DNA of 64,000 nt, taken from IMG/VR virus record IMGVR_UViG_3300044733_004146; one strand, written 5' to 3'. Every line of letters starts with the position of its first letter. Within the stretch, counting starts at the first letter, position 1. The DNA comes from an uncultured virus (IMG/VR IMGVR_UViG_3300044733_004146) (Duplodnaviria > Heunggongvirae > Uroviricota > Caudoviricetes). This document shows, piece by piece, positions 5,741-28,649 of the stretch. Both the position numbers and the translations under genes were made by a program. The notes beneath the pieces are model-generated. The model was not told the origin of the DNA. It saw only the letters and a program-made list of their open reading frames with translations, and ran no database searches.

Positions 5741-7108
5741 CTAGGAGATTAAACTTTCGATCCACCCAATGTCATCATCTTTAGATGCGGCCAAGATTGC
5801 ACCAGCCATGGCAAACGCTAAGTCGTCAATGCCAGTGGCCTTGCCGCCAGTAACCGTCCATTGCCCACTGGGCTTGTAAGTGACAGTAAGATTTTTGATT
5901 TGCATGACGGCCTTTTCGTGACGGTATAAATTAATCTGCCCTGCATTGAACAGCTCTCGCATTTTGCTGAAAGCCTTCATCTTGGAGCTAACGGTCCAAG
6001 TGAGTTCAGTGATGGGCAGATCGCCTGCCAAGGTTTGAATGGTGCCAGCACTGTTGAACTGGTCCATCACAATCGTGTCGAAAACGTATAGGCGATGCTG
6101 TTCTTTTATCCAATCTTCCACTGCATTGATATTCACTTCCATTCTTCCATTGATTTCAAAATCAGCAGCAAAGGAATGGAATTTATCAACGACTAACGTG
6201 CCGTTTTCAAAATGAACAATACAAGCAGTGTAATCATCACGGCCAACCCCACCTCGGGCAGGGTCCAAGGCCAAGACATAAGCACCTTGGAATTGGGCTC
6301 TGGGTGGTAGAGCCGCTCGACGGTCATCAATGCAGGCGTCAACAACATCACTAGCAACAAGAGCGGAAAGATTACTGGCGAATTGAGCGCCATATTCCAC
6401 TTTAAATTTTTCGGGGTCGCGCTGCCTCTCTGTGTCAAGAAACTCTTGCGAAATGCGAGGGTTCATCTCCCACGTTGGGAGGTTTACGGCCTGCATGAAA
6501 GGGAAGCGGCCAGACGCTGCTTCTTTGAAATGCTGATAGAAGATGCCGTCAGTCAGCCATGGGGAGGAGAGTTCTAGGATGCGCCCATGACCGCCAAACT
6601 GAGCGATAGAAGGAGAAAGAGCGTCATAAATGCCACGTCCGCCGGAGTTAGCATCGCCTTCTGTGGCGAATGCAAGTTCATCAAAAACAGCACCGGCGCA
6701 AGCGAGACCACGAGCAGCACGCCCGGAAGTTGGTATAGCTTTAAAAACGCAGTGGTTACTAATTTCAATGATGTCGGCAGTTTCACGAACAATCTCCTGA
6801 GCGAAGGGACTTTCGATGATGAGCTGCCGGATGTTGTTTAGGGCAATACGAGCCTGATCTTGACTGTTTGCAACAGTTACAACGTACCAGCGTTCTCCTT
6901 TTCTTACTTTACGACGATATTGTTCTTCTAGGACGAAACACATATAGATGCAGGCAATGGCTGCCATGAGCGTCTTGCCTGAGCGTCGCCCGAGAGCCCA
7001 CACTGCATGCGACTTGCCGGGCTGAAAGAATTCATCAAGAATTTCAGCCTGTTTATGGAAAAGCTCTAAATGAAGAGCGTGTTTGGCGAAGTCTGAACAG
7101 CGAAGCAT
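5741..7108 (-). CDS. terL: Terminase large subunit
   Basis: GRRSGKT Walker A, AVFDE Walker B, LSSP coupling motif, and nuclease residues LALDPA / MDQ / DDLAFA. Confidence 0.92.
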   Translation of the reverse strand: MLRCSDFAKHALHLELFHKQAEILDEFFQPGKSHAVWALGRRSGKTLMAAIACIYMCFVLEEQYRRKVRKGERWYVVTVANSQDQARIALNNIRQLIIESPFAQEIVRETADIIEISNHCVFKAIPTSGRAARGLACAGAVFDELAFATEGDANSGGRGIYDALSPSIAQFGGHGRILELSSPWLTDGIFYQHFKEAASGRFPFMQAVNLPTWEMNPRISQEFLDTERQRDPEKFKVEYGAQFASNLSALVASDVVDACIDDRRAALPPRAQFQGAYVLALDPARGGVGRDDYTACIVHFENGTLVVDKFHSFAADFEINGRMEVNINAVEDWIKEQHRLYVFDTIVMDQFNSAGTIQTLAGDLPITELTWTVSSKMKAFSKMRELFNAGQINLYRHEKAVMQIKNLTVTYKPSGQWTVTGGKATGIDDLAFAMAGAILAASKDDDIGWIESLIS

Positions 7109-7605: not shown

Positions 7606-7670
7606 AGCAACCAGGCCAATGTAGCCAGCTTTTAGAATGAAAGCAATACATGATGGCCTTAAGAAAATCA

Positions 7671-9749
7671 ATGGATAACGAAATGGTTGATTTGGGGCAC
7701 GCTTCCGAAGGCGGACTGCGTGCTGACGGCCTGCAAAACGTGCTCATCGGCATGGGCACTAGTCGCGATAAGGGCCAGTACACCAAGACCACGGCTACAA
7801 TTTTCCTAGCGCAAGAGGAGCTGGAGAATTTATATGGTGAATGGTTGCCTCGTCGCATTGTTGACATTTATGCTGACCAAGCCACTCGGAAAGGCTTCAA
7901 GGTATTGTTTGGCGGAGATGGCGTTAGAGCCGAAGAAGTGCAAGGCATTGAGCAAGTAATTGAAGATTTATATATCCTGGAATATTTAAATTTGGCGGCA
8001 AAGAACTCTCGCCTTTATGGCGGGGCCTGTTTGCTGCTGTTTATTGATGATGGCCGTCCGGCCTATATGCCAGTGGATAAACGTAACATTCGTCGCATCG
8101 AAGAAATTGAATGTTTAGACCGTTGGCAAATTGCACCAGTCATCACTGAAGAAAATCTATACGACTATTCCAAGGCAACGTACTATCAAATTATTTCTGG
8201 CGATTTAATTAACGAGCCCACTTTGTCCTACATCCATAGAGATAGGATTTTGCGTTTTGATGGGGATTGGCTGCCCTACCGCATTAGGCAACGGAATTAT
8301 GGCTGGGGCATGAGCAGCCTTCAAACTGTTTATGACAGCTTCCGGCATTATTGGACGGGCTTGAATTCAGCGGCTACGTTGCTCACTGAGTTTGACATTT
8401 TTGTGCATAAAGTGAAGGGACTTGCGGCAATGCTGGCAGCCGGAAAGGAAGGTGCTGTCAGGGATAGGCTGCAAGTGAATGATATGAGCAAGAGCATCTA
8501 TCGCGGTTATGCGATTGATGCAGAAAAAGAAGAGCTTGAATTTATTAGTCGCAATTTTGGCGGCATTGGGGAAGTGTTGGAGAAGCTCCGCGTGGACATT
8601 ATTGGCGCCAGCAAAATTCCTCATACCGTGCTATTTGGCGAAAGCCCGAGCGGACTGGGTTCGACTGGCCGCAGTGAAGAGCGTGATTTTGCCAAGACAC
8701 TTGCTGATTATCAGAGCGTCCATTTCAAGCGACCTATTAAGAAGCTGATGGAATACATCATGCTGAGCAAAGAGGGGCCAACGAATGGAAAGCTGCCTGA
8801 ATCTTGGCGCATCTCCTTCAACCCATTGTTTGAGCTGAACGAACGGGAAATGGCGGACGTGCGGGCGCGTGTGGCGGCTGTGGATGGCCGCTACATCCAG
8901 CTTGGCGTATTGAGTCCGAAGGAAGTGGCGGACGCCCGTTACGGCGGTTCTGAGTGGAGCATGGAGCTTACGCTCGATCCAACTGTCATTCGCGAACTTC
9001 CTGCTCAAGGTGGGGGTGGTTCCACTCAAGGACGGGGTGGTTTTGCTGTACCGCCTGGTGGTCGCGATCCAATGAACGAAGAGAATGGCACGTTGCCGAT
9101 GGATGGCAGCCGGGAAGTGGAAGATTCGGCTGGTTTGTTCCTGCCCCGTGATCTTAAGAAAGTGCGTGGCGACGTGGAATTTACTGACAAGGAGCTGCAT
9201 TCTCGCGCTGTTAGCGCAGCCAAGGCGAAGTTCAAAGTATGGCCTTCAGCTTACGCCAGCGGCTATGTGGTGCAGCAATATAAGCAAATGTTTAAGAAGA
9301 AGCACGGTTCATTGAGCGGTGCTTTCAAAGGAGACGAAGGTGAAATTCATGCCGATGATCTTGAGCAATGGTTCAAAGAAGAGTGGGTGAGGATTGGCGC
9401 CAATGGCGAAATCATGGGGCCATGCGGCGGACGTGAAGAAAAAGAGGGCAAGCCAAAGTGCCTGCCTAAGGCCAAGGCTCAAGCCATGAGCAAAGAAGAG
9501 CGGCAAACCATTGTTGCTCGCAAGCGCAAAGCTGATCCTGATCCAGAGCGCCGTGGCCCGGCGAAGATGGTCAGCAGCAAAGTGGATGCTATTGACCCAT
9601 TAAAAACCAGCGGCCTAGTGCTGGGAGATGTGGACGAGGCTTCGTTGATTTCGGAAGAAGATATTGACGCCGCATTGAATCAATGGAAACAAGAAGCGCC
9701 GGAACGGTTTAAGGACATTCTGGAGGCCGAGGATGTCCAACCCTCTTAA
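7671..9749 (+). CDS. Portal protein (DUF1073 type) with a long C-terminal accessory extension
   Basis: LYGEWLPRRIVD, SRLYGG, IPHTVLFGESPSGL and FNPL motifs. Extension contains KFKVWPSAYASG and LEQWFKEEWV...PKCLP. Confidence 0.85.
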   Translation: MDNEMVDLGHASEGGLRADGLQNVLIGMGTSRDKGQYTKTTATIFLAQEELENLYGEWLPRRIVDIYADQATRKGFKVLFGGDGVRAEEVQGIEQVIEDLYILEYLNLAAKNSRLYGGACLLLFIDDGRPAYMPVDKRNIRRIEEIECLDRWQIAPVITEENLYDYSKATYYQIISGDLINEPTLSYIHRDRILRFDGDWLPYRIRQRNYGWGMSSLQTVYDSFRHYWTGLNSAATLLTEFDIFVHKVKGLAAMLAAGKEGAVRDRLQVNDMSKSIYRGYAIDAEKEELEFISRNFGGIGEVLEKLRVDIIGASKIPHTVLFGESPSGLGSTGRSEERDFAKTLADYQSVHFKRPIKKLMEYIMLSKEGPTNGKLPESWRISFNPLFELNEREMADVRARVAAVDGRYIQLGVLSPKEVADARYGGSEWSMELTLDPTVIRELPAQGGGGSTQGRGGFAVPPGGRDPMNEENGTLPMDGSREVEDSAGLFLPRDLKKVRGDVEFTDKELHSRAVSAAKAKFKVWPSAYASGYVVQQYKQMFKKKHGSLSGAFKGDEGEIHADDLEQWFKEEWVRIGANGEIMGPCGGREEKEGKPKCLPKAKAQAMSKEERQTIVARKRKADPDPERRGPAKMVSSKVDAIDPLKTSGLVLGDVDEASLISEEDIDAALNQWKQEAPERFKDILEAEDVQPS

Positions 9750-10415: not shown

Positions 10416-11111
10416 ATGGATGTGTTGATTGGAAGCACCGGCTTAATTGGCGGCATTCTTCAAGAACATCAGCAGTTCAATCATTCGTACAATTCCAGCA
10501 ATTTATATCGTGCTTCATTGTTAAACGGCACGATTGACAAGCTGTATTTGGCATGTCTTCCGGCGGAGAAATGGAAGGCCAATCAAGATCCGGCGAAAGA
10601 TTTTTTCAACATGCAAGAGATTGCAGCCGCCATCCGCCCCTGGGAAGTGAAGGAAATTATTCTTTATTCCACCATTGATATTTACAAGCATTCTTTTGGC
10701 AATTTAGATTACGGGCGCGTAAGGCGCATGTTTGAGCTATTAGTGAAAGCGATGTTTCCGAATAGCGTTGTAAAGATTATTCGTCTTCCCGCATTATTTC
10801 ATAAGCGCATTAAAAAGAACGTTTTGTTTGATTTATTGAACAATAATAATGTTGGTCAAATCAATGGCAATTCTGCCTACCAATGGTACGATTTAAACGA
10901 TTTATGGCAAGATACCCTGGCGATTGAAGGGGCCGGCATTTACGATTTATTTTCTGAGCCCATTGAAACGCAAGAAATTCTTGATCGTTTCTTTCCTGAA
11001 GCCAAAGTGAGTTATGGCTCCCGTATTGACTATCATTGCGGGAGTTATAAATACGGCAAAGAAAAAATGCTTGCAAAAATGGAGGCGTTTATCAATGCTT
11101 ATCGGAATTAG
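10416..11111 (+). CDS. NAD(P)-dependent epimerase/dehydratase-like protein
   Basis: LIGSTGLIGG Rossmann motif, STIDIY, YG, IRLPALF. Confidence 0.8.
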   Translation: MDVLIGSTGLIGGILQEHQQFNHSYNSSNLYRASLLNGTIDKLYLACLPAEKWKANQDPAKDFFNMQEIAAAIRPWEVKEIILYSTIDIYKHSFGNLDYGRVRRMFELLVKAMFPNSVVKIIRLPALFHKRIKKNVLFDLLNNNNVGQINGNSAYQWYDLNDLWQDTLAIEGAGIYDLFSEPIETQEILDRFFPEAKVSYGSRIDYHCGSYKYGKEKMLAKMEAFINAYRN

Positions 11112-11838
11112 TGCGATTGGCTGGGAGCCAGAACAGGAGGAGCAAATTTTAAGCGCCAATGCCGGGGCGTTTAATCTGCTGGAGATTGTTCCTCATCGAG
11201 TGTTTCAGCAACGTCTTGATTATGCAGACTTAGCAAAGAAATATAGGGAAGAATATGGTCTTTGGGCATATTCTGCTCAAGCTTTGTTTTTCGGCAGCAA
11301 TGTAGAAAGTTTTGAAAATACCGAGGCCACTCAAGAGCATTTATTGCGCGTTATTAGGTTAGGTTCTTTTATGGGAATCAAGCGCTTTGTTCTTGGCAGT
11401 CCCGGTCTCCGGCGTGGAAGTCCTGCCTGTTTAATGAACGTGCTTCGCCGCATGGACAAGATTCTGGAAGCCAATGATGCCATTCTGTGCATTGAACCAG
11501 TGGCACGGGCATTTGGCGGAAAATATTTTCACACTGTTGGTGAAATTGTCAATTTAATTGATTATTACAATTTGAAAAATGTCAAGACCATGCTCGATAC
11601 AAACAACGCATGGCTAGAGGGCGATAGCCCTAAAAAGATATTGGGACATTATCTTCCTTACATTGCTCACGTGCATATCAGCGACACTGATAATGGACCA
11701 CTATTAAATAAATATGAGCACGAGCAAATTAGAGAAATGCTGGGCATGCATGGTTACCAGCTTGGCATCATTCGCGAACTTTTTAAGGCTAAAAATTATC
11801 TTCGTGAATATCCACTGTTCAGGCAAATCTATGCCTGA
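11095..11838 (+). CDS. Sugar phosphate isomerase/epimerase (xylose isomerase-like TIM barrel)
   Basis: ISAIGW, LEIVP, VLGSP, CIEP, MLDT and HVHIS motifs. Confidence 0.8.
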   Translation: MLIGISAIGWEPEQEEQILSANAGAFNLLEIVPHRVFQQRLDYADLAKKYREEYGLWAYSAQALFFGSNVESFENTEATQEHLLRVIRLGSFMGIKRFVLGSPGLRRGSPACLMNVLRRMDKILEANDAILCIEPVARAFGGKYFHTVGEIVNLIDYYNLKNVKTMLDTNNAWLEGDSPKKILGHYLPYIAHVHISDTDNGPLLNKYEHEQIREMLGMHGYQLGIIRELFKAKNYLREYPLFRQIYA

Positions 11839-12803
11839 TTGATAATGGTTTGAATGTGGTTTTTGATGGCATAGATACCTTGAATTTTGCCAGTAAAAAT
11901 AGAAACGAAGTTATCACGCTGGCGATAAACGGGCATACGATTGGCACTTCTGTCTTTAATCTTGGCCTTGGTAGAGCACACTGGCGCCACGGGTCTTAGA
12001 TATAAATTAAAGTCCGGCCAATATTGCCTTGCATGATCCTCCATTTTTAAGCGATGGAGATTGTAGTCGTGATCGTCGTAATTGTCAACAGGACGAGCGC
12101 TTTGCGACAAAATCCCATGCTTTACGTGGCTCAAAGACATAAGCCCTTCGCCATAGGGATAGAGGGAGAATAATTCTCCGTCAATGTAAGTAAGTGCGCC
12201 AAAGGGAAGAGGCCGTTCAATGGTGTAGAGCATCATCATGACGCGCTCAAAAAAGCAATTCTCTTCTGGCTTCAAAAGAAAGTTGTTAGTGCAATCAAGC
12301 ACTAAATCATAGTCTTGTTGTAAAAGGGGAAGTTCATTGGCAACTATTTCTTCATGCACAACAAATGGCAAGAGAAGAGCTTGAAAATATTCTCCTGCCA
12401 ATACAGGGTTGATAAATTTTTCTGGCGTGGCAATGGCACAGGAAGTGTTGTCTAGCCACGGGGCGTAAACCACGCGATGCGGCCATTCATCAAAAATTGT
12501 CAAAATTGTTGTGTCGTCCAACAAGCTTTCGTCTTGCGAAACAGCGTACAAATTGTCCGTAATGTCTTCAACAAGATGACCGTAGTCTTTTAAGAACGCA
12601 TGGAAAGTAGTGCGGCACAATTGGCGCGTCCTTCCATTTCGTGCATAGTGATAGCCATAGTGCAAGCGATTCTGATTGATCAGCGATGCCTCGCTAATCA
12701 AATGATCATTGCGCTCGTAAATCGTAATGTTGTGTTCTTTGCTGAACTCTTTAGCTAGATGACAGCCCACCCAGCCGCCTCCGATGATGGCAATATTTTT
12801 CAT
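11829..12803 (-). CDS. FAD-dependent oxidoreductase
   Basis: IAIIGGGWVG dinucleotide fold, ASLINQNRLHYGYHY, GKI near the C-terminus. Confidence 0.85.
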   Translation of the reverse strand: MKNIAIIGGGWVGCHLAKEFSKEHNITIYERNDHLISEASLINQNRLHYGYHYARNGRTRQLCRTTFHAFLKDYGHLVEDITDNLYAVSQDESLLDDTTILTIFDEWPHRVVYAPWLDNTSCAIATPEKFINPVLAGEYFQALLLPFVVHEEIVANELPLLQQDYDLVLDCTNNFLLKPEENCFFERVMMMLYTIERPLPFGALTYIDGELFSLYPYGEGLMSLSHVKHGILSQSARPVDNYDDHDYNLHRLKMEDHARQYWPDFNLYLRPVAPVCSTKAKIKDRSANRMPVYRQRDNFVSIFTGKIQGIYAIKNHIQTIINQA

Positions 12804-13480
12804 CAGATGTCAAGACAGAGGACTGGCTGCACGCCTTGCCAATTGCTTTTGGCTTTATAGAGGTCTAACTGGGGAAAATATTCAATGCGACGGGCAAAAC
12901 CAGTGCCATATGCGTCTGAATGACCTTGGTAGTTCCATTCGTCGGGACCATGGCGATCAGGATGGTAAACGTGAGTGGGTGCGTCGTTTAATTTCCAGAG
13001 CATGTAGTCCTCATTTGGCACGCCCCATTGCTTCCACCTTTGCAGAGCTTCAGGCGAGCAGTCCGTGTTTCGGATGGCCATCAAGCGGTCCTTGTGGCGC
13101 AGGAGGTAGTCCATGCGATACAGGCCAATGCTCATTGATGGCGTGCCCTTGAGGGCCACTTTCTCTGGACTGTCTACTGGCAACGACAAGGCAAGTTCGT
13201 AAAACAAGGGGCCAGCGATGCAGGTGTCGTGCAGAAGGAACCAATAGTCGCTGTGGATGTTGCTATCGACAATTTCAATGAGAGGAGTGTATTCAAAAGA
13301 GTTTTGCGGCGTCAACAGCATTGGCACGCCTTCGTAGTCCGTGATTGTCAGGGAATCCTCCCATCCACCATTGACAATCAAAATATGCTCTTTGGCAATG
13401 CCGTTTTGGAGTAGGGAAGGTACGATCACCTGCAATGTATGCGCTGCAAACTTCTGACAAGTGCTAATGCAGAAGCGCAT
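12803..13480 (-). CDS. Putative GT-A fold glycosyltransferase
   Basis: ILIVNGG, SFEYT and YWFLLHDTC (DxD-like), located in the sugar cluster. Confidence 0.55.
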   Translation of the reverse strand: MRFCISTCQKFAAHTLQVIVPSLLQNGIAKEHILIVNGGWEDSLTITDYEGVPMLLTPQNSFEYTPLIEIVDSNIHSDYWFLLHDTCIAGPLFYELALSLPVDSPEKVALKGTPSMSIGLYRMDYLLRHKDRLMAIRNTDCSPEALQRWKQWGVPNEDYMLWKLNDAPTHVYHPDRHGPDEWNYQGHSDAYGTGFARRIEYFPQLDLYKAKSNWQGVQPVLCLDI

Positions 13481-13563
13481 TGAAGCTGGTGATAGTCGCA
13501 TGGTTCGTCTCCTGCGCCCATAGTATAAACGCGGCTTATGATGGCGAAGATTCTTGTTTTGTC

Positions 13564-14781
13564 ATGGCAAAAATTCTGTATTGCGGCGATGCTTTTGTGG
13601 AAACTGGCTTTGGCCGTGTGGCGGAAAACCTACTTCCCGCATTGGCCGAGGAGCATGAAGTGAGCGTGTTGGCCGTTAACTATCATGGCGATCCAGACAA
13701 AGAAGCTCGTAAATACGACACCTACCCGGCGATGCTGCATGGCTCCGATCCATTTGGCTCCCATCGCATTGGAGAGCTAGTGCAAAAGATTAAACCAGAT
13801 TTGGTGTGGGTGACAAATGATATTTGGATAGGCATCAGCTTATGGAAGGCTGTTAAGGCTTTTAAAGAAAGCATCGGCTTCAAATTCTTTGTGTATACGC
13901 CAATTGACAGCTACGGCTTGTTCCCCGAACTGTTAGAGCCTATTAACGAATGGGACGGCGTGGCCACTTATACGGAGTTTGGCGCCGAAGAGCTTCGCAA
14001 GATTGGCTATGAAAAACCAATTGGCATTATGGGGCATGGCACAGATTTCACCAAGTTTTTTCCCATGGACAAAGCCGAATGCCGAGAAAAACTGGGCGTT
14101 CCGCCAGATGTTTTCATTGTTTTCAATGGCAATAGAAACCAGCCCCGTAAGCGCATTGACTTAACCATTAAGGGCTTTATCAAATTTGCCAAGGACAAGC
14201 CTGATGCAAGACTATGGCTGAATATGGGCAGCAAAGATATGGGGTGGGATTTGATTCCGTTGTTTAAGCGCGTAGCGAGAGACGAAGGCTACGACCCAAC
14301 CGGCAAACTTATTTTGACGAGTCCAAGCTTTTCGACGGCCAATTGTCTTACTATTGAGCAGCTCAACATGGTCTATAACGCTTCAGACATTGGCATCAAC
14401 ACTTGCATTGGGGAAGGCTGGGGCTTGGTTAACACTGAACATGCGGCCACTGGCGTGGCTCAGTTGGTGCCAGATCATACGAGCTGCAAGGAAATCTTTA
14501 GTGGCGTGCCGCGCATTGCCATTGAAAGCTGGGAAGTGGACAGGAATTATGGCCTTGACCGTGGCCAGCCATCGCCAGATCATTTAGCCGAATTGCTCAC
14601 GATGTATTACGAAGATCGAGAGCAATTAAAGGCTGATGGCGAATGGTGCAAGCAGCGCATTGAAGAATTCACTTGGCCTGGTATTACGGAGCTGATGATG
14701 GCTCAAGTGGAAACAGTTTTGACCATGGAGTTAGAAGAGCCTGAATTCAAGGGCTTTGGTACTCCCGCAAAAATTGATTGA
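13564..14781 (+). CDS. GT-B (GT4-like) glycosyltransferase
   Basis: TGFGRV, NRNQPRKRID, YNASD and GEGWGLVNTEHAATG (E-x7-E). Confidence 0.9.
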   Translation: MAKILYCGDAFVETGFGRVAENLLPALAEEHEVSVLAVNYHGDPDKEARKYDTYPAMLHGSDPFGSHRIGELVQKIKPDLVWVTNDIWIGISLWKAVKAFKESIGFKFFVYTPIDSYGLFPELLEPINEWDGVATYTEFGAEELRKIGYEKPIGIMGHGTDFTKFFPMDKAECREKLGVPPDVFIVFNGNRNQPRKRIDLTIKGFIKFAKDKPDARLWLNMGSKDMGWDLIPLFKRVARDEGYDPTGKLILTSPSFSTANCLTIEQLNMVYNASDIGINTCIGEGWGLVNTEHAATGVAQLVPDHTSCKEIFSGVPRIAIESWEVDRNYGLDRGQPSPDHLAELLTMYYEDREQLKADGEWCKQRIEEFTWPGITELMMAQVETVLTMELEEPEFKGFGTPAKID

Positions 14782-15503
14782 TGGCCATGCAGATTTCTCA
14801 AATTTTTCTAACCACTAATCCAGAAGAAAAGCTTTCCCCTTTTCTTCAATATGCCACTAGCACTATTGATACAGTATTTCCTAAAGCCAATCACGTTATT
14901 TACAACAATGAGCAACTCCGTGATTTCATTGGTTCTGTTTATGGTGGGCACGTTTTATGGGCTTACGATTCGCTACGTCCTTTTTCGTATAAAGCTGATC
15001 TTGGGCGCTTCTGTCTCCTCAATCATTTTGGCGGCTGGTATTTCGATATTGCTATTCGCGCTGTTAATGCTGTGGACGTGGGAGATCGCATTAAATTTTT
15101 AGCCTTCCGCGACATCCAGCGATTTAGTTATACCAGTTGGGCTTGTGCCACTACTGTTTTGTATTCCCAGCCCAACAATGAGGCTTTGCAAACTGCCATT
15201 GAAATGATTGTGGCCAATTGCGTGGAACAATATTATGGCATCACGCCATTGTGCCCCACTGGCCCTACTCTCCTTGGCAAGGCATTGGCATGCAACGGAA
15301 GTCAGGCAGATTTTGTTTATGGAGACTATCTGGAGCTAACGCCCACGCATGAACAGAAGAACAGGGCGTTTGTGCTGCCTGATGGCACTATCATGGCGTG
15401 GAGCAAGCCAGCCGGAGGCGGCGACCTCACTGGACTGGGCGCCAAGAGCGTCAACAATTACAACGAACTATGGGCTGCGAGGCAAGTGTATGAAACCGTC
15501 TGA
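14781..15503 (+). CDS. GT32/OCH1-like DxD glycosyltransferase
   Basis: YKADLGRFCLLNHFGGWYFDI and TGPTLL motifs. Confidence 0.85.
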   Translation: MAMQISQIFLTTNPEEKLSPFLQYATSTIDTVFPKANHVIYNNEQLRDFIGSVYGGHVLWAYDSLRPFSYKADLGRFCLLNHFGGWYFDIAIRAVNAVDVGDRIKFLAFRDIQRFSYTSWACATTVLYSQPNNEALQTAIEMIVANCVEQYYGITPLCPTGPTLLGKALACNGSQADFVYGDYLELTPTHEQKNRAFVLPDGTIMAWSKPAGGGDLTGLGAKSVNNYNELWAARQVYETV

Positions 15504-16206
15504 TTACACCATCTATGCAGTGTGCATTCAAAACGAAAAGGTTCGTTATAAAGCGCAATCTCGCATTGTCCCAATTATGGGCGGGGCCTGCAACATTGTC
15601 GATGCAGAGCGCAGGGCTTTGCGGAAGCAAGGTTATATGTTTGACGACGAAGGAGCGTTTATTTCCTCTTTAAATAGGCGATGGGGAGAACTATCTTGTG
15701 TGCATTGGATGTTGCTAAATGCTGAAGAAGCAAACATTGGCAATGCCCAATATCGTCGGAATTGGATAGAGCCCAAGACTGGTTGGTACGCGGAGGATGT
15801 GCTTTACGTGCCAGAGCCGGCTGTGTTCACTTGCACCCTAGAGCAGCAGTTCTATGGTGGGCATTCAGAGTTTGATGCCCCTGCCATCACTCGCGAACTT
15901 GCTGATACTGGCGCCTGGGCATTTACGCGAGAAGAGATTGACAAATTATGGGCGCAAAATTTATTTATTGGTTGCAACATGGCTCGTGGGCCAAAGCAAC
16001 ATTACAAACAATTTATGACCACTTTATTCGTTTGTTTATTGCCTATTTGGGAAAAACATAAGGAACATTTTCTCTCCATTGAAGGCTATGACAAACGGGC
16101 TCTGGCCTTTATTGCCGAACGTTTACTGACTGGCCTGGTTTTATACCGTGACAAATTCTTTCCTGGCATGACTATTGAAACAGCGCCGATAGGATTTATT
16201 CATTGA
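15490..16206 (+). CDS. DUF4422-like glycosyltransferase
   Basis: DD..ISSLN..WGEL, IGNAQYRR, CNM and RALAFIAERL motifs. Confidence 0.75.
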   Translation: MKPSDYTIYAVCIQNEKVRYKAQSRIVPIMGGACNIVDAERRALRKQGYMFDDEGAFISSLNRRWGELSCVHWMLLNAEEANIGNAQYRRNWIEPKTGWYAEDVLYVPEPAVFTCTLEQQFYGGHSEFDAPAITRELADTGAWAFTREEIDKLWAQNLFIGCNMARGPKQHYKQFMTTLFVCLLPIWEKHKEHFLSIEGYDKRALAFIAERLLTGLVLYRDKFFPGMTIETAPIGFIH

Positions 16207-16232: not shown

Positions 16233-16496
16233 ATGACCAAGAAGGAAAAACAGGCCAAAGTGGCCAAGGTGATGCGTGAGTTTAAAGCTGGCACTTTAAA
16301 GGGCAGCGACAAAAAACCTGTAAAGAATCGTAAGCAGGCCATTGCAATTGCCCTTTCAGAAGCCGGCATGAGCCGTCAGGGCAAGAGCGATGAATATTGG
16401 GATAATTATTTTATGACCCTCATTGGAGAAGAAGAAGAGGAAGAGGGTATGGAAGAAGAAGAAATGGAGGATGCGTCCTGCGGAAAAAAGCGCTGA
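16233..16496 (+). CDS. Small basic/acidic protein (DUF6496-like); N-terminal half of a frameshift fusion
   Basis: KVAKVMREFKAGTL...RKQAIAIALSEAG with an acidic tail. Ends at A_AAA_AAG CGC TGA. Confidence 0.8.
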   Translation: MTKKEKQAKVAKVMREFKAGTLKGSDKKPVKNRKQAIAIALSEAGMSRQGKSDEYWDNYFMTLIGEEEEEEGMEEEEMEDASCGKKR

Positions 16497-16843
16497 GGGG
16501 TGACGCAGAAAGCTTCTCCCCTCCTGCTGGCGTTAGAAGCGCCGCCCGTCGCGGCCTAGAGCTTCGCAAGAAGCATGGAAAAGGCGGACTAACTACGCAA
16601 GAGGCCGGGAAGCAAGGCATTGGTAGCGGCGTGGCTCGCGCTAGTGATCTAGCTGGTGGTGGAGCCGTAAGCTTCGCCACAATTAAGCGTATGGCTGCTT
16701 TCTTTTCTCGTCACGAGAAAAACAAGAGCGGCGGAGAAAACGATGCTGGTTATATTGCTTGGCTGCTATGGGGCGGCGATGCCGGTAGGGCGTGGGCAAA
16801 TCGCATTATTAAGATGGTAGAAAGTCGTCAAAAAGACCAATGA
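16484..16843 (+). CDS. -1 frameshift extension (PPAGVRSAARRGLE...AWLLWGGDAG domain)
   Basis: Frame is open from 16406 with no start codon before GTG 16631, yet reads as protein from 16493. Reached through the slippery heptamer at 16484-16490. Confidence 0.75.
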   Translation, partial: KKALRGDAESFSPPAGVRSAARRGLELRKKHGKGGLTTQEAGKQGIGSGVARASDLAGGGAVSFATIKRMAAFFSRHEKNKSGGENDAGYIAWLLWGGDAGRAWANRIIKMVESRQKDQ

Positions 16844-17489: not shown

Positions 17490-18686
17490 ATGAGCACCAC
17501 ATCTTGTCGGTACGATTTCTCGCCAATTGAGAAATACGAAATGACGCCAGAAGGCTATCTTCGGGCGTGGGCTTCGATTGCTCGCACTGGCATTCAGCTC
17601 TATACAGATGCTGATGGCTCTGTGCGGCGAGAGTATCGTCCAGAAACAGAAGTGGCGTCTCCCGAGAGTCTTGCTTCGTTTGCGGGCAAGGCAATCACTT
17701 CGGAACATCCCCCTGTTCTTCTTGATGCCGACAATACTAAAGACTACCAAGTGGGCTTTAGCGGCACTGAGATTGTCTATGACAATGGTTTCGTCAAGGC
17801 CGTGATGACAATCACGGACAAAGATGCCATTGAACGGATTATGCGGGGAGATGCTCGTGAGGTAAGCGCTGGCTACAGGGTGAATTATGATCCCACGCCT
17901 GGCGTTACAGAAAGTGGCGAAAATTACGATGGCATCCAAAAGGAGATCATCGGCAATCACATCGCTATTGTTCGTCGGGGCCGCGCTGGCCCGCAAGTGA
18001 AGCTCCATCTTGATCGTCAAGATGCAGCCGATCTATCTTTATTCTCTACTACAGGAGACCATCTAATGACTGCAAAAGTCGTTTTTGATGGCGCCGAGTT
18101 TGAGGTGACGGAGAGCGTTGCTCTTGCGATCACTAAAGAACGCGAAGACGCCAAAATGTCCTACGAGGACATGAAGAAAAAATACGACGAGCTGCAGGCC
18201 GCCGCCGATGCCATGAAGTCCGAAATGGATGCCATGGCTAAGGAAATGAAGGGCAAGTGTGATTCCGCTGAGGGTCGCGCCGATGCTCTGGCCGAGCACG
18301 TCGAAGAACTGAAAGGCGAACTGGCTGCCGCCAAGGAAATCAATCTTGATTCCATGGTTGAAGAGCGTCTTGCTCTGATTGAAAAGGCTAAGCCTGTTCT
18401 GGATGCCGCCTATGAATTTAGCGGCAAAGAAGCCCGTGAGGTGATGGTGGACGCCATCAAAGCCGTGCGTGGCGATAGTGTTGATCTGTCTGAAAAGTCT
18501 GATGACTATGTTCAGGCCATGTTTGACACTCTGGCCGAATCGTCCCGCGATGATTCTGTTGCCACTGATGAGCTGCGTAAAGCCGTGGCTTCTATTGCTT
18601 CTCCCATGAGCGCACCGTCTTCCTACATGGAAACGCTGCAAAATGCATGGAAGAAGCCTCTCTCCATCTCTAAGGAGGCTAAGTAA
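17490..18686 (+). CDS. Prohead protease/scaffold (DUF2213 type)
   Basis: TPEGYL, ARTGIQ.Y, ITSEHP, EVSAGY and NHIAIV..GRAG motifs, with a coiled-coil C-terminus. Confidence 0.88.
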   Translation: MSTTSCRYDFSPIEKYEMTPEGYLRAWASIARTGIQLYTDADGSVRREYRPETEVASPESLASFAGKAITSEHPPVLLDADNTKDYQVGFSGTEIVYDNGFVKAVMTITDKDAIERIMRGDAREVSAGYRVNYDPTPGVTESGENYDGIQKEIIGNHIAIVRRGRAGPQVKLHLDRQDAADLSLFSTTGDHLMTAKVVFDGAEFEVTESVALAITKEREDAKMSYEDMKKKYDELQAAADAMKSEMDAMAKEMKGKCDSAEGRADALAEHVEELKGELAAAKEINLDSMVEERLALIEKAKPVLDAAYEFSGKEAREVMVDAIKAVRGDSVDLSEKSDDYVQAMFDTLAESSRDDSVATDELRKAVASIASPMSAPSSYMETLQNAWKKPLSISKEAK

Positions 18687-19264: not shown

Positions 19265-20167
19265 ATGTCTGAATTCCGTATGGATGAAGCGGGTCTGTTT
19301 CTTGAGCGTCAGCTTGAGTTCATCCGCCCCCAAGTGTTTGAAGTGCAGTATGCGGATATCAAATATCCGACTGTGCTGCCCGTAACTTCTGAAGCCGGTC
19401 CTGGCGCTCAGACCTTCACCTACCGCATCATGGATGCCACTGGTGAGTTTAAGCTGATCGCTGATGCTGCTGATGATCTGCCCCGTGCCGACATCAGCCA
19501 GACCGAGAAGAGCATCAATATCCGTTCCTTCGGCGGTAGCTTCGGCTACACCGTGCAGGAACTGCGTGCTGCTCAAATGGCCAATATCGCCCTGGAGCAG
19601 CGTCGCGCTGCTGCCGTGCGTCGTGCTTACGAAGAGAAAGTGGAAGATCTCGCTTTCTTTGGTGAGAGCACCGTGGGTCTGTCTGGTTTCTTCAACAACT
19701 CCACCGTGGATGTGGTTGCTGCTGATAAGTGGTTCAGCACTGCCACTGCCCAGGAAATGCTGGAACTGCTGAACTATGGCGTGACTGCCATTATCAACGC
19801 TTCCAAAATGAAGGAGCAGCCCGACACCATTCTGATGGCGTGGGAAGATTACAACAAAGTGAGCACCACCCGGAACTCCGATTCTTCGGACGTGACCGTG
19901 CTTGAGTACTTCCTGCGTACCAACCCCTACATCCGCAACGTTGAGCCCATCAACCAACTGGATGCTGATAACAGCGTGCTGAACACCAACCGTATGGTGG
20001 TGTACAAGCGTGATCCTGAGAAAGTGCAACTGCACGTTCCTCAGCCTCTGGAGCTGTTCCCCCCTCAACAGCGCGGCTTGGAATTTATCGTTCCCGCCCA
20101 TGCTCGCGTTGGTGGCGTGGCCCTGTACTATCCCAAGAGCGTTATTTACGTTCAGGCCAACGCCTGA
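19265..20167 (+). CDS. Major capsid protein (DUF2184 / encapsulin-like HK97 fold)
   Basis: FLERQLEFI, YTVQELRAA, AFFGE and GGVALYYP. Strong AGGAGG RBS and strong codon bias. Confidence 0.9.
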   Translation: MSEFRMDEAGLFLERQLEFIRPQVFEVQYADIKYPTVLPVTSEAGPGAQTFTYRIMDATGEFKLIADAADDLPRADISQTEKSINIRSFGGSFGYTVQELRAAQMANIALEQRRAAAVRRAYEEKVEDLAFFGESTVGLSGFFNNSTVDVVAADKWFSTATAQEMLELLNYGVTAIINASKMKEQPDTILMAWEDYNKVSTTRNSDSSDVTVLEYFLRTNPYIRNVEPINQLDADNSVLNTNRMVVYKRDPEKVQLHVPQPLELFPPQQRGLEFIVPAHARVGGVALYYPKSVIYVQANA

Positions 20168-22843: not shown

Positions 22844-23097
22844 AAATTGACTATCTGTGGAGCGACGATAGAACTGTCCATGCAATTAACAATGCCATAG
22901 AAGGCACGGCTTTAGAGGCCGGCATCTTGTGCCTTGTTTCCTGCAGGGAAGAGACTGTTAGACTTTCTAACGAAAATCATTCAATGCTGGTTGAAATTCC
23001 GAAGGAATTTCGCTCTTCCAACGAACGAGTGAAAGTTTTCAACGCATTGCTAAACATTCTTGACCATGAGCAAATACAGCTTCCTGCTTCAAACTAA
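22840..23097 (+). CDS. Hypothetical protein
   Basis: Coupled ORF in the tail operon. Confidence 0.6.
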   Translation: MKIDYLWSDDRTVHAINNAIEGTALEAGILCLVSCREETVRLSNENHSMLVEIPKEFRSSNERVKVFNALLNILDHEQIQLPASN

Positions 23098-23602
23098 GAC
23101 TGAAGATTATTTTGAGCTATTGCCTGAGCTTCGCCTAAAGAAATATGGCGGCTGGTTAGTTGCAGAAGCTATTGAGCAGGAAGAGATTAGTAAACTGCAG
23201 AGTCAAGCTACTATTCGCGCCGTGCAACTTGCCAAGCGCATTGCCACTGCCAAAGACATCCCCCTGGACGAAGCTTTTAATTTGCTGCAAGGAGGCGGCG
23301 GCTCAATCACTGAGGCGGAGTTACTTTCTGAATATACTGAAGAAACTTTGAGCATGATCACTAGTGGTTCGTCGGTGGAAAGTACTAACGCTCGCATGGT
23401 TACTGCCTTTATTCGTTCTCGCGGGCAAGGTCTCGTTGATGGAAATTGGCAAGACCTCGATGACTGGGAGCTGGAAGATACAAAAAATCTCCCCCGTAAA
23501 TACGTTGCAAAAATAGTTGAATTTATTACTGCAGAGCAGAGCGCCGAGACCCAGGAGGCCGCTACGGCAAAAAAAGCGACGAAGAGGAATTCTCCTCAGT
23601 AG
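23066..23602 (+). CDS. Tail assembly chaperone (G-like)
   Basis: Upstream of the tape measure gene. Ends with the GCA AAA AAA slippery site. Confidence 0.75.
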   Translation: MSKYSFLLQTKTEDYFELLPELRLKKYGGWLVAEAIEQEEISKLQSQATIRAVQLAKRIATAKDIPLDEAFNLLQGGGGSITEAELLSEYTEETLSMITSGSSVESTNARMVTAFIRSRGQGLVDGNWQDLDDWELEDTKNLPRKYVAKIVEFITAEQSAETQEAATAKKATKRNSPQ

Positions 23603-24042
23603 CTGAAGCATTAGAGGCACGAGCTAGAAAACAGCTTAAAATTTTAACGAATTGGGACGAAATTTACTTTCGTCTTTCGGCATCAGACTTTCGTGATCCA
23701 CGATGGCACGCCAATCAATTTGGGCGGCAGCGATTGAGAGATGTTCAGTGTGCATTGAAATATTTGGACAAGCATGACATTGCAAAATACAACGTGCAAA
23801 GCATTGCCATTGCAAAGTTTGGCACAATGACAGCAGGGATGATTGGCGGCAAGAAATCAAAAGTAAAACCAGAAGACTTTTTGCCATTTGATACCAAAGT
23901 ATTGAAAAAAGACAGCGGGCTAACGGATGAAAGCATGATTGTTTTCCAGCGTTTAATGAAGACAAGAAAAATGGATGGAAGAGTGATTGCCTTATTGGCA
24001 GACGAATTAAAAGCTTTTGCCGGACGTAACCAAGAGCAATGA
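23569..24042 (+). CDS. Tail assembly chaperone GT extension via -1 frameshift
   Basis: A_AAA_AAA at 23569-23575. The -1 frame is open into ORF 23734..24042 (KPEDFLPF). AGGAGG lies 10 nt upstream. Confidence 0.75.
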   Translation, partial: KKSDEEEFSSVAEALEARARKQLKILTNWDEIYFRLSASDFRDPRWHANQFGRQRLRDVQCALKYLDKHDIAKYNVQSIAIAKFGTMTAGMIGGKKSKVKPEDFLPFDTKVLKKDSGLTDESMIVFQRLMKTRKMDGRVIALLADELKAFAGRNQEQ

Positions 24043-24077: not shown

Positions 24078-27000
24078 ATGGCAGCTCAAGACGCCGAACT
24101 TAAACTTAAGGTAAGTCTTGACCTGGCGTTTTTTAGACAGCAACTATCAGGGCTCGGCCAGGCTGCAGCGGGATATAAAATTCCTGTGCAAGTTCAGTTT
24201 GATAGACGTAGTGTACAAAATGAGCTTAATACGTTAGGAAGAAATATTAGCCAAAGAACATATCGACTAAATGTTCAAACAAATTTAGACGCTGAGATTG
24301 ATAAAGCCAAAAAACTAGCTGCCGCATTGAAAAATGTTTCGGCTGGTGGAAGTGGTGCAATTCCTCGGCAAAGTGGAACGTTTCGCCAAGAGCTAACTGG
24401 AATTGGAGACGTTAATACTCTGCGTTCTCTTTACAGAGAGGCAGCAAGAAAAGGGCTCCTTGCTTTTGACGAAGAGGTCAATGCAAGCAAATCAAAAATT
24501 ATTACAGCATTAAATCAAGCGGCTCAAGAAGCAAGTCAAGGTTTTCTTGATGCATTTAGCAAAGAAAATTCTCGTGTCCGTAAAGCTGCAGGTGAATACG
24601 GACAAGTATTGCTTGCGGGATTGAAAAAAACCTTAAAAATTAGCTCTCCTTCCAAGGAGATGTTTGACATTGGCGATGATGCGGGAAAGGGATTTGAACT
24701 TGGCTTGCTAAAAGCATTAGACATTGCAGAGCAATCTGCTAGTCGCAAAATGCGACGAATGCTGGACCGCTTAGCTCGCATGGCCCTGATGATGGGCGGA
24801 ATGAGCACAACGGATATTAACCGGCAAGCTGGGCAAACCAGAGGAGCCGGCCTGCCTGGTCCCTCATGGGCTGCTACTGTTCCACCTTCACAAGGTGGTG
24901 GCTATGGCGGTGGTCGCATGTTGCCACCTGGTCCTACATTTCCTGCGTTAGGAGGTACTGCATTTGGTGCTCAAAAATATCTTCCCACAGCGTTAAGCGA
25001 TGAACTTAAAAAGATTTTACGTGGCGCTGCATATGCTTTTGTTGACTCACTGAAGCAACAAACAAGAGGAGTGAAAATAGGTCTTGGCGCCACTCAACAA
25101 CCTTTGCTGACAGGCGGAAGAATTGCTGGATTGCTGCCTGCTGGCGTAGGTAGACAACCCAGCGTTTACAGTACTGGCAAAATTGGCGTCGAAACACAAT
25201 CTCAATTATTTGCTCGTCGCGAAAGAGAAGCCCGCATGCGATCTGCGTTGCGCGAAGTGGATGTTTTGGGAGCAACAAATAGAGGGGCGCAGCCATATAA
25301 CTATGCTTATAGAAGTGCTCGTCCGTTAAGCGCTATTGTTCCATATGCTGCCGGTGGCGCTTTGGTGCCTGGTGGCGGCGGAGGCGGAAATCAAGGCGAA
25401 GGCGGCGGCGGTGGAAATGTGCCGCCTGGTGGTGGCTTTCGCAATGCGATGGGCTTTGGACCGGATCCAAGCAAGATTAATTTAGATATTTTTCAAAAAG
25501 CTCGTTTGCCGTTGGCAGGCGCGATAGGAGAAGTTGCTAGTGAATTTGCAAATGCGACAAAGCAAGTGCTCCTGTTCGGCACTGCCTATAAAGGTCTAGC
25601 TTTCTTCATGGATTTGCCAAACCAGGCATTCCAAGCAACAAAAGCTTTAGCTACATACAAGAACCAATTACAAGCAGTCACTTCTGCATCGGGCACTTTT
25701 GAACAATCTTTCGCTTTTGTTGACACACTGGCCACAAGGTTCAACGTGCCCTTAGATAGTGCGCGTCAAGGTTTTGTTAAGCTTTACGCTTCAATGCAAC
25801 CTGCGGGGTTTGACCAGGGGCAGATTGAAGGACTCTTCACTGGAATTGCCAAGGCAGCAGCAGCTTTTGGTTTGAGTTCGGACAAAGTAGATCGCGTCAA
25901 CTATGCCTTTGCTCAAATGGCAAGCAAGGGCCAGATTATGAGCGAAGAACTCAAGGGGCAGTTGGGAGACGTGCTGCCTGGAGCGCTGGGGCTTTTTGCT
26001 GAAGCTGCTCAAATGAGCATTCCCGAATTCAGCAAGGCAATGGAAGACGGCGCCTTCAAAGGGAAGGCAATGGAGCAAGTGTTAGGAAACGTTGCTATTT
26101 TGCTGAATGAAAAATTCAGCGCTGCTGCCACGGGAGCTGCTAATACCTTGCAAGGTGCTGTAAATCAAATTCAAAATAATTTGAAATTAATGTATGAAAG
26201 CATGGGGCCAATTGTTGATCAATTTGCTTCTGCTTTTGGTCCTCAAGTGAATAGCCTTTTGGCCGACGTTACGTCTGCCATGAAAGCTTTAACGGCAACC
26301 ATTTATCCTGGTTCTGACGTTATTGCCACAATGACGCCTAGGGCGGCAAGTCTTTTCGTCACCTTAAGAGAGCTTGGCGAATCCGCTCAAGCTGCAGGTA
26401 AAAACATATCTTCCTTCGCATCTTCATTGCAAATTTTTGTGGCACCATTGATTGCGGCAACAAGAGCTGCTCTTGACTTTATTTCCCTTCCTTTTGTTGC
26501 AAGAGTTGGCTTGTATGCTGCGATCTTGGCATCGCTAAATGGCGCGTTTCAGTTATTAGCACGCACTGGAATTATCCAGGCAACCATCGCAATGGTTCAA
26601 TTTGCTGCAAGTTTTAATATTGCACAAATTGGCGTTTACATAGCTGGCATTAGAACTGTTATCGCCGTGCTTGCGAGCATGATTACCACTGCAAACCTGG
26701 CGCGGCTTGCAATTATGGCGCTCAAGGTTTCTCTGGTAACCCTTGGAGTGGGAGTCGTCCTGACTGCCCTGGATGCGGTTGCTCAAAGGCTTTTGAATAT
26801 TGATAATGCGGCAAAGTCAGGCAAGCAAAGCGTCAAGGAGTTTGCTCAAGAGCTAGACAGAATTGCAGCAAGTGGCGACATTGAAAGTGCCACTCGTCAG
26901 TATTTAGACGCAAATACTAAACTGGCTCAAGCAAGAGCCGCGAACCAAAAAGCATTAAGAGACCTGTCCTTGGCCAGAGTTCTGCCCGCCGATGAGGGTG

Positions 27001-28649
27001 GCGGAATGCAGGACGTATTGCAAGCAGAAAAAACAGCTTCTAATACCTATGCACAAGTATTGGCCGCAAGGCGCGAGGTTGAGCAGGCGCGGAGAGCAAG
27101 AGCATTGGCTGTTCAGCAACAACAACAGCGAAGCCAGACAACACGACAACAGTTGCAAACAGTTGATCTCAGTGCTCAAGAAGAAGGAGCTGGTGGCAAG
27201 AAGCTGCAGCCCTACGATCAGAGTCGGCTGGAAAATATTGAAAAAGTTGTTGAAAAACACAAGCAATATTTAGATGGATTGCTACTGGAAGAGCAAATTA
27301 GTCGCACAAGGTATGACATTGAAATTGCGAATTTAAATGCATTAAAAGAGGAAGCTTTTGCAGCAGAGCAACTTCGTCTCAACAAGTTGCAGATAGATCG
27401 CGACAATATGAGCGCTGCAGATAAGAACTTGCGTAGATATGACTTAGAGCGAAATTATGAAATTGAATTGACAAATATAGCTGATAGGAGAAATTATGCT
27501 TTAAAAAAAGCAACAGAAGATATTCGCGGCCCCTTCAAAGATGCAATACGTGATGCAAACATTGAAATTGAAAAGTCCACAACTGAAATTGAAAACTTAC
27601 GGCGCGGCTATGCTGGTCTAACGCCAGAGCAGCAGGCTAATTACCGCATAGAAGAATTAACCAAAAATTTAAAAGCGGATCAATATCGAATCATTAAGGA
27701 TGAAATTGAAGCAGCGCGAGAAAGGCTTAGGGTGCAAGCGGAAACAAATCAGTTGCTAGAGCAAGAAAGAAACCTGTCTCAAACACGTGCTCAAATTGGC
27801 ACTGCTGGCCAGGGACTTATGGCTGGTTTTTATGGAAGTGCAGCGCAAACATTTGAAAATGCGCTTATGCAATCCAATGGAGACCGAGGATACGCCACGC
27901 AAATGGCTGAGTTAGAAACGCAATCCATGCGTCTTCAGACAGTCTTTGGTGGCATTCAAAACGCCATTGGCGGCATTGGTGATGCTTTTGGCACATTAAT
28001 GACTGAAGGCATTGCTTCGATGATTGAAGGCACGGCAACGGCCCAAGAAGTGTTTAGTGGCTTCTTAAACGCCATTGGGCAGGCATTACAGCAAGCAGCA
28101 GCGCAAATGATTGCCACTTACATCGCCATTGGCATTGCCCGTATCTTTGCTGGTATGGGAGGCGGCGGCGGCGGACTTGAAGCCAGAAATGCTTCTGGCA
28201 ATGCGGCATTTATGGACAGAGTGGGCAAGCTGGACTTGGCCGGGAGTTCCTACGCAAATGGCGGAATAGCGGTTGGTGGCTTTAAAGCGTTTGCTAATGG
28301 TGGCGTGGTTCAAGGCCCTACTCTTGGTCTGGTGGGCGAGGGCAAGTACAACGAAGCTATTGTGCCGCTGCCTGATGGTCGCTCCATCCCTGTGCAAATG
28401 CAAGGCGATAGCATCCGCGACAAGATGGGAGGCAGCTCCAACGGAGGCGCCATGGCTTCTCCAGTGTTGTCCATGAACTTTGAGACTACCACTATCAACA
28501 ATGTGGAATATGTCAGTAGGGATCAATTAGAGCAGGCTATGATGGAAACACGTAAGCTTGCCGTTCGTGACGGAGCACGGCAAGGAGCCAATTTGGCCAT
28601 TGATAAGCTTCAGCAAAGTCCCACCACTCGTCGGAGGATTGGCATTTAA
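24078..28649 (+). CDS. Tape measure protein
   Basis: 1523 aa, Ala/Gly-rich and helical. AFAQMASKGQIMSEELKGQLGD, LKISSPSK and FANGG..GPTLGLVGEG..EAIVPL. Confidence 0.93.
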   Translation: MAAQDAELKLKVSLDLAFFRQQLSGLGQAAAGYKIPVQVQFDRRSVQNELNTLGRNISQRTYRLNVQTNLDAEIDKAKKLAAALKNVSAGGSGAIPRQSGTFRQELTGIGDVNTLRSLYREAARKGLLAFDEEVNASKSKIITALNQAAQEASQGFLDAFSKENSRVRKAAGEYGQVLLAGLKKTLKISSPSKEMFDIGDDAGKGFELGLLKALDIAEQSASRKMRRMLDRLARMALMMGGMSTTDINRQAGQTRGAGLPGPSWAATVPPSQGGGYGGGRMLPPGPTFPALGGTAFGAQKYLPTALSDELKKILRGAAYAFVDSLKQQTRGVKIGLGATQQPLLTGGRIAGLLPAGVGRQPSVYSTGKIGVETQSQLFARREREARMRSALREVDVLGATNRGAQPYNYAYRSARPLSAIVPYAAGGALVPGGGGGGNQGEGGGGGNVPPGGGFRNAMGFGPDPSKINLDIFQKARLPLAGAIGEVASEFANATKQVLLFGTAYKGLAFFMDLPNQAFQATKALATYKNQLQAVTSASGTFEQSFAFVDTLATRFNVPLDSARQGFVKLYASMQPAGFDQGQIEGLFTGIAKAAAAFGLSSDKVDRVNYAFAQMASKGQIMSEELKGQLGDVLPGALGLFAEAAQMSIPEFSKAMEDGAFKGKAMEQVLGNVAILLNEKFSAAATGAANTLQGAVNQIQNNLKLMYESMGPIVDQFASAFGPQVNSLLADVTSAMKALTATIYPGSDVIATMTPRAASLFVTLRELGESAQAAGKNISSFASSLQIFVAPLIAATRAALDFISLPFVARVGLYAAILASLNGAFQLLARTGIIQATIAMVQFAASFNIAQIGVYIAGIRTVIAVLASMITTANLARLAIMALKVSLVTLGVGVVLTALDAVAQRLLNIDNAAKSGKQSVKEFAQELDRIAASGDIESATRQYLDANTKLAQARAANQKALRDLSLARVLPADEGGGMQDVLQAEKTASNTYAQVLAARREVEQARRARALAVQQQQQRSQTTRQQLQTVDLSAQEEGAGGKKLQPYDQSRLENIEKVVEKHKQYLDGLLLEEQISRTRYDIEIANLNALKEEAFAAEQLRLNKLQIDRDNMSAADKNLRRYDLERNYEIELTNIADRRNYALKKATEDIRGPFKDAIRDANIEIEKSTTEIENLRRGYAGLTPEQQANYRIEELTKNLKADQYRIIKDEIEAARERLRVQAETNQLLEQERNLSQTRAQIGTAGQGLMAGFYGSAAQTFENALMQSNGDRGYATQMAELETQSMRLQTVFGGIQNAIGGIGDAFGTLMTEGIASMIEGTATAQEVFSGFLNAIGQALQQAAAQMIATYIAIGIARIFAGMGGGGGGLEARNASGNAAFMDRVGKLDLAGSSYANGGIAVGGFKAFANGGVVQGPTLGLVGEGKYNEAIVPLPDGRSIPVQMQGDSIRDKMGGSSNGGAMASPVLSMNFETTTINNVEYVSRDQLEQAMMETRKLAVRDGARQGANLAIDKLQQSPTTRRRIGI

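Follow-up and report, generated by a model that had tools for sequence, protein, structure and literature searches.

A predicted −1 ribosomal frameshift joins a DUF6496 protein to a conserved helical domain in the head gene block of an uncultured siphovirus-type phage

Programmed −1 ribosomal frameshifting at an A_AAA_AAG heptamer (positions 16484 to 16490) very probably yields two proteins from one gene region of an uncultured lake-water virus of the cyanophage S-CBS4 type (IMG/VR record IMGVR_UViG_3300044733_004146; Caudoviricetes), an 87-aa DUF6496 protein and a 203-aa fusion, as judged from the sequence and from its relatives. The window (the whole stretch of DNA analysed, 64,000 nt) is a siphovirus-type phage genome. 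That ribosomes shift by −1 at this heptamer, so that a short DUF6496 protein is made together with a fusion product of about 200 aa, had been proposed from the letters of the window alone, and the proposal is strongly supported by the relatives described here. The heptamer, an upstream GGAGG, a downstream hairpin, and both open reading frames (ORFs) all lie where that original prediction had put them (Table 1).

Table 1. Elements of the predicted frameshift site and main landmarks of the window
Feature	Position	Strand	Basis
ORF1, 0 frame: DUF6496 domain + Glu-rich linker	16233..16496	+	Pfam PF20106
ORF2, −1 frame, 117 codons + stop, start-less	16490..16843	+	phrog_2859, homologues
SD-like GGAGG, 13 nt 5′ of heptamer	16466..16470	+	sequence
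Slippery heptamer A_AAA_AAG, 0-frame register GGA AAA AAG	16484..16490	+	sequence, 109 split relatives
Hairpin: 9-bp stem GAGGGGUGA / UCUCCCCUC + 2 inner pairs	16495..16523	+	fold, covariation
Terminase	5744-7108	−	
Portal	7650-9746		
Glycosyltransferase-like genes	11-16 kb		
DUF6496/ORF2 gene	16233-16843		
DUF2213 head maturation protease	17490-18686		
Major head protein	19265-20167		
Tape measure	24078-28646		
Integrase	41502-42353		

ORF1 starts at ATG 16233 and ends at TGA 16494-16496 (short product, 87 aa); a TTG at 16203 is also in frame, and homologues of ORF1 begin with MTKKEKQ at the ATG equivalent to 16233. Its description as DUF6496-like was confirmed by Pfam (PF20106; E = 1.4e-9, 38.6 bits against a gathering cut-off of 24). 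The 3′ end of ORF1 reads ...TCC TGC GGA AAA AAG CGC TGA, with A_AAA_AAG in X_XXY_YYZ register one codon 5′ of the stop. From about 16403 the −1 frame is open up to a stop at 16841-16843 and reads ALRGDAESFSPPAGVRSAARRGLE...; it is start-less as predicted, with no ATG, GTG, or TTG for 47 codons and the first of these, GTG 16631, at codon 48. The 117-aa peptide of this frame (P0001) matched positions 164 to 265 of 740 in phrog_2859 (E = 3.5e-17). Joined at the heptamer, the predicted trans-frame product has 86 + 117 = 203 aa.

Under programmed frameshifting, most ribosomes on ORF1 would stop at TGA 16494 and release the 87-aa DUF6496 protein. Some would slip back one base on the heptamer, the tRNA-Lys pair shifting from AAA AAG to AAA AAA, aided by the G/C-rich hairpin 4 to 6 nt downstream; in the window genome the GGAGG, 13 nt upstream, may help as well. 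For the shifted ribosomes, translation in the −1 frame would run on to 16843, and their product would be a 203-aa fusion of the DUF6496 domain, an acidic disordered linker, and a helical domain. We infer the slip itself, how efficient it is, and whatever part the two products may play in or with the capsid, and we can only infer that short protein and fusion would be made at a fixed ratio, as had also been suggested.

Homologues of P0001 comprised 1,072 proteins of 64 to 205 aa, and the best 120 fell into 35 of 103 to 141 aa and 85 of 170 to 205 aa. Among 21 homologues inspected, the short ones begin L/MRKKALRGD... or at an upstream out-of-frame ATG, and the long ones are in-frame fusions of DUF6496, linker, and the domain encoded by ORF2 (domain 2). 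One contiguous homologue (P0015) carries the exact −1-shift junction, ...SSCGKKALRGDAESF... (...CGKKALRGD...). DNA loci were collected from three scans (the best 80 of 390, 315, and 144 confirmed relatives) and, with Synechococcus phage S-CBS4, a Limnohabitans phage locus, and the window, made a set of 225 loci. Both parts were present in 220 of the 225, with 141 unique gene regions: 109 with ORF2 in the −1 frame (split forms), 30 in-frame fusions (fused forms), and 2 single-base indel variants. One of the last two is an A7 version of the A6+TAG type (L073); in the other (L159) a G is missing ahead of the A-run, and ORF2 consequently falls in the +1 frame. The A7-type variants, L073 and P0015, are constitutive in-frame fusions. 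These three length variants (L073, L159, and P0015) are rare, affect the slippery run or its immediate neighbour, and could be natural escape variants or assembly errors. Columns of the ORF2 alignment were mostly invariant in amino acid with free synonymous change, which indicates that ORF2 is translated, and in split forms ORF2 is under strong purifying selection.

A heptamer of this kind is by itself within chance (16 copies of AAAAAAG in the window against 26.7 ± 5.2 expected); its combination with the ORF architecture and with conservation in relatives exceeds chance. X_XXA_AAG was found in frame at one aligned position in 109/109 unique split relatives, as A_AAA_AAG in 79, G_GGA_AAG in 25, and C_CCA_AAG in 5. 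The codon before the heptamer ended in the matching base X in all 109 split genes, with a variable residue (Gly, Lys, Arg, Glu, Ala, or Ser before A-type heptamers; Leu, Glu, Gln, Ser, Ala, or Met before G-type; Cys, Ser, or Pro before C-type). A matching third base despite varied residues points to constraint at a synonymous site that has no protein-level explanation. The 0-frame stop lay one codon past the heptamer in 99 split forms, immediately after it in 8, and further downstream in 2 (L015 and L029). Across the whole window AAAAAAG is under-represented (at least 16 copies in all 100 shuffles), a scarcity consistent with avoidance of shifty heptamers.

Counted from the end of the heptamer, the hairpin stem begins 4 nt downstream and the invariant GGGG of its core 6 nt downstream; the outer part of the hairpin pairs GAGGGG (16495-16500) with CCCCTC (16518-16523). 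A 40-nt fold of the window hairpin gave −18.2 kcal/mol (z = −2.86), and 2 of 200 shuffles were as stable. Conservation in relatives, named beforehand as a check on the prediction, extended from the heptamer to this structure: the GGGG arm was present in 109/109 split against 9/30 fused forms, and the 7-bp core was completely paired in 95/109 against 2/30. Median minimum free energies were −18.1 (split) and −9.0 kcal/mol (fused), with a Mann-Whitney p of 3e-14 in a statistic that takes the relatives as independent. Among 45 distinct 50-nt junctions, 90.1% of the cells of an 11-pair structure held standard pairs, against 52 to 67% with slid 3′ partners, and the covariation score was reached by none of 500 shuffles. 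These data give the site the downstream structure of a bacterial-type −1 frameshift site.

Two-sided changes occurred at one stem pair only. The covarying pair 18-34 joins the third base of a Gly codon to the first base of a Ser/Ala codon, and in the 109 split forms it was AU (45), CG (37), UG (9), GU (3), GC (1), CU (11), or UU (3); the window, with its U-U mismatch at stem pair 7, belongs to the three forms with UU (3/109). A change from Ser to Ala (TCC to GCC) before the PP motif was seen in 44/109 split relatives and in split forms only (window 16499-16519), with the Ala codon GCC coupled to GGC in the opposite stem arm; RNA pairing seems to have driven this change in the protein. Codon choice in the stem arms of split forms was narrow (Arg AGG 108/109, Ser TCC 60/62, and Pro CCT 104/109). 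Fused forms used six different codons for the stem-position Arg, and identical residues elsewhere in ORF2, and in fused forms, were spread over many codons; synonymous diversity fell at the stem arms in split forms only. On this comparative evidence, heptamer and downstream hairpin both behave as selected elements.

That the locus holds two separate genes, with ORF2 initiating within the overlap, at a weak or non-canonical start codon or by termination-reinitiation, seems very improbable. Candidate ORF2 starts in the window are CTG 16477, 6 nt after GGAGG and hence in a GGAGG-N6-CTG arrangement with start-like spacing, and CTG 16493, which overlaps the TGA. Gene callers have given 121-aa "L/MRKKALRGD" proteins in many metagenomes, and 33/109 split forms have an ATG, GTG, or TTG in the −1 overlap (TTG at −16 in 9 of them); because of these overlap starts and of CTG 16477, some independent initiation is possible in those genomes. 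However, a canonical start between the last −1-frame stop and the conserved domain is absent from 76/109 split forms, and 16/109 lack CTG and ATH as well. The CTGs of the window are unconserved, and the CTG at −1 vanishes with a TAA or TAG stop. The overlap of ORF1 and ORF2 ranges from 10 to 193 nt and is at most 13 nt in 9/109 split forms; in those nine a −1-frame stop lies right before the heptamer, so that the frame opens only there and the heptamer is the only way into ORF2. Separate genes would also leave unexplained the 109/109 in-frame heptamers with a matching preceding third base and a stem that is kept only in split forms.

Transcriptional slippage, in which RNA polymerase would add one A in the A6 run and create a fusion mRNA, is given just as slim a chance. 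The window has the six-A run, and the A7 DNA variants (L073 and P0015) indicate that the run tolerates a change of length. Yet in 30/109 split relatives the heptamer is G_GGA_AAG or C_CCA_AAG, so that only three A are available at this place; this speaks against slippage of the polymerase, in which a conserved RNA hairpin downstream would also have no role. Efficient bacterial transcriptional slippage requires longer runs.

A homopolymer error of assembly or sequencing, or a recently pseudogenised fusion gene, is almost certainly not the explanation: in-frame fusions are common (30/141 unique loci, and 170 to 205 aa in 85 of the best 120 protein matches), but many independent metagenomes contributed the 109 unique split sequences, the cultured isolate S-CBS4 has the identical arrangement, ORF2 of split forms is under strong purifying selection, and contigs bridging the run in lake-water samples have no indel there. 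Twenty lake-water metagenome runs contain the window sequence, 17 of them flagged as its possible source, and in the four compared the sole indel was an in-frame 3-nt deletion at 16452. Evidence on the A-run comes from contigs rather than reads; no change of its length was found in contigs bridging it with at least 31 letters per side (two in X19, one in X20, and one in X2), of which X2 is possibly the source sample and X19 and X20 are unflagged as such.

The signal had been described beforehand as three-part, with the SD as one of its elements. GGAGG is indeed present, but the element is unconserved in relatives: the anti-SD duplex over −20 to −3 was −6 kcal/mol or stronger in 66/109 split forms against 13/30 fused forms. 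An SD as a conserved third element was rejected because the duplex was weaker than −4 kcal/mol in 30/109 split relatives (13/30 in fused forms). SD-like strings arise here because the Glu-coding linker is rich in GAA and GAG, and the GGAGG is a possible optional stimulator, local to the window and outside the conserved signal. An R-G-D site right after the shift had further been suggested to release the second domain; this idea found no support, because the AGG GGN GAY codons make the 5′ arm of the hairpin. Fused relatives have R[G/D]D or KED in its place.

An AF2 model of P0015 (87-row alignment; mean pLDDT, 83.9) comprised a helical DUF6496 domain (residues 1 to 67), a disordered segment that holds the junction (residues 70 to 87), and an all-helical domain 2 (residues 90 to 202, pLDDT mostly >90). 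The junction is modelled within a disordered acidic linker between two confidently folded domains. ORF2 encodes a conserved, unnamed all-helical domain of about 110 aa. P0001 had no Pfam match at E 0.1 or better, PDB sequences gave nothing better than E 0.41, and Foldseek against PDB returned nothing at E 0.001 or better; a wide VIA-align comparison reached a Z of 4.7 at best, a value that says nothing for a model made of helices. By these comparisons, domain 2 is like no solved structure. DUF6321 (PF19846) was a lead for domain 2 from a protein atlas (feature score, 0.90) that the Pfam models did not confirm, the DUF6321 model matching only 1 of the 87 aligned homologues (E = 0.0042).

At E 0.001 or better, domain 2 was found in 3,702 clusters (50% identity), whose proteins range from 115 to 1,547 aa in length. 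A Pfam family was present in 32 of the 56 longer representatives scanned; partners were InPase (6), 2_5_RNA_ligase2 (9), DUF5824, DUF5661, DUF6582, and ddrB-ParB, and further Mu F, portal, XkdF protease, capsid, and topoisomerase IB. Fold matches of domain 2 in BFVD were to portal, prohead-protease, and ParB fusions. Membership of the polyvalent-protein repertoire goes by recurrence with known polyvalent domains, and domain 2 shows such recurrence. Domain 2 is a module that recurs widely in multi-domain (polyvalent) proteins associated with phage heads. Iyer et al. 2017 (PMC5512222) predict polyvalent proteins to be packaged in the capsid or virion.

The DUF6496/ORF2 gene belongs to the head morphogenesis block, with the portal gene on one side and the prohead protease gene on the other. 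It does not lie directly upstream of the tape measure gene, the placement of tail assembly chaperones. Just 5′ of the tape measure gene, the window has a second candidate −1 site, of the tail-assembly-chaperone type, at A_AAA_AAA 23569-23575 (+ strand; region 23054-24042): a 0-frame ORF (23054-23602) reads ...GCA AAA AAA GCG... with the heptamer in register, and the −1 frame stays open between 23521 and 24042. The 699-aa portal protein is extended at its C terminus, where residues 570 to 644 match the separate families phrog_23735 and phrog_727, of unknown function. Between the portal and head genes, positions 11014-16206 hold a glycosyltransferase-like block (a phrog_2170 GT, DUF4422, and others); its counterpart in S-CBS4 holds glycosyl/galactosyl transferases and a methyltransferase.

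Among cultured phages, Synechococcus phage S-CBS4 is the nearest, with 80% identity across domain 2 and a gene order in common with the window. Its locus (L081; NC_016766, 12873-13525) is annotated as two hypothetical proteins, gp018 and gp019, and the GenBank record carries no ribosomal-slippage annotation at gp018/gp019; the annotated gp019 start lies 36 nt inside the conserved −1 ORF. The S-CBS4 junction reads AGA AAA AAG GGC TAA, followed by GGGGCGA...UCGCCCC.

The 141 unique genes were placed on a FastTree DNA tree built from the first 150 nt of ORF1 and from ORF2 past the stem, with trait columns omitted. Fused and split forms interleave on this unrooted, recombination-unaware tree, and the short product may be dispensable because they do. 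The fused state requires 8 changes on the unrooted tree, at least 5 of these changes being forced by starred branches, and heptamer-type changes on the unrooted tree numbered 20 for A, 15 for G, and 3 for C. As a speculative and rather doubtful extension, the frameshift might act as an evolvable dial that sets how much DUF6496 protein is tethered to a head-targeting polyvalent-protein module, and thereby packaged into the capsid or carried along with the DNA, and how much stays free in the cell. Lineages would then repeatedly toggle between fused and frameshifted versions, swap the three heptamers, and change Ser to Ala for the stem.

In the PRFect paper, annotated phage frameshifts are nearly all tail chaperones, and the word "frameshift" is absent from the text of Iyer et al. 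2017 (PMC5512222). In the literature searched, nothing on DUF6496 was found, and at the level of titles and abstracts the literature on frameshifting and cyanosiphoviruses held nothing about the DUF6496/ORF2 gene. The mechanism is textbook; the gene family is not recorded as using it. Frameshifting here would add a well-supported non-tail recoding site to phage biology, would account for hundreds of start-less "121-aa" metagenomic ORFs, and would correct the S-CBS4 annotation, in which gp018 and gp019 should be one recoded gene. Fused versus frameshifted versions, three interchangeable heptamers, and a covarying stem form a natural comparison, useful for training frameshift predictors and for studying the gain and loss of recoding sites. 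The family also offers a handle on an abundant unnamed head-associated domain.

The E. coli dnaX gene (tau/gamma) combines an A_AAA_AAG heptamer, tRNA-Lys, a downstream stem-loop, and an upstream SD. The site described here likewise has A_AAA_AAG with tRNA-Lys decoding predicted and a stem-loop a few nucleotides 3′, and the window also has an SD-like element 10 to 14 nt 5′. Unlike in dnaX, the SD is unconserved in the DUF6496/ORF2 family, and the proteins are unrelated; the shifted frame of dnaX ends at once and gives a shorter product, whereas the shift in the window would give a longer one. IS3-family elements (IS911/IS150) use an A_AAA_AAG-type heptamer, a start-less −1 ORF, and downstream structure in orfA-orfB. 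As there, a short upstream-ORF protein and a trans-frame fusion are the predicted products, but here in a phage head-module gene, not a transposase or mobile element, and with many relatives fused in frame. By analogy, the mechanism would be of the dnaX/IS3 type with an extending shift.

Two of the closest known systems are from phages. As in lambda G/GT (discussed in PMC10885494), the shift would extend a short structural-module protein into a minor longer form, and the G_GGA_AAG of that system is used by 25/109 split relatives. Unlike lambda G/GT, the gene lies in the head block rather than ahead of the tape measure gene; the two are unrelated in sequence, and the window has its own separate site of that type at 23569-23575. 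Like the polyvalent proteins of Iyer et al. 2017 (PMC5512222), multi-domain proteins of other phages combine domain 2 with InPase, 2H phosphoesterase, DdrB-ParB, MuF, portal, XkdF protease, and capsid domains; unlike them, the predicted fusion has only two small domains, which would be joined by recoding and not within one ORF.
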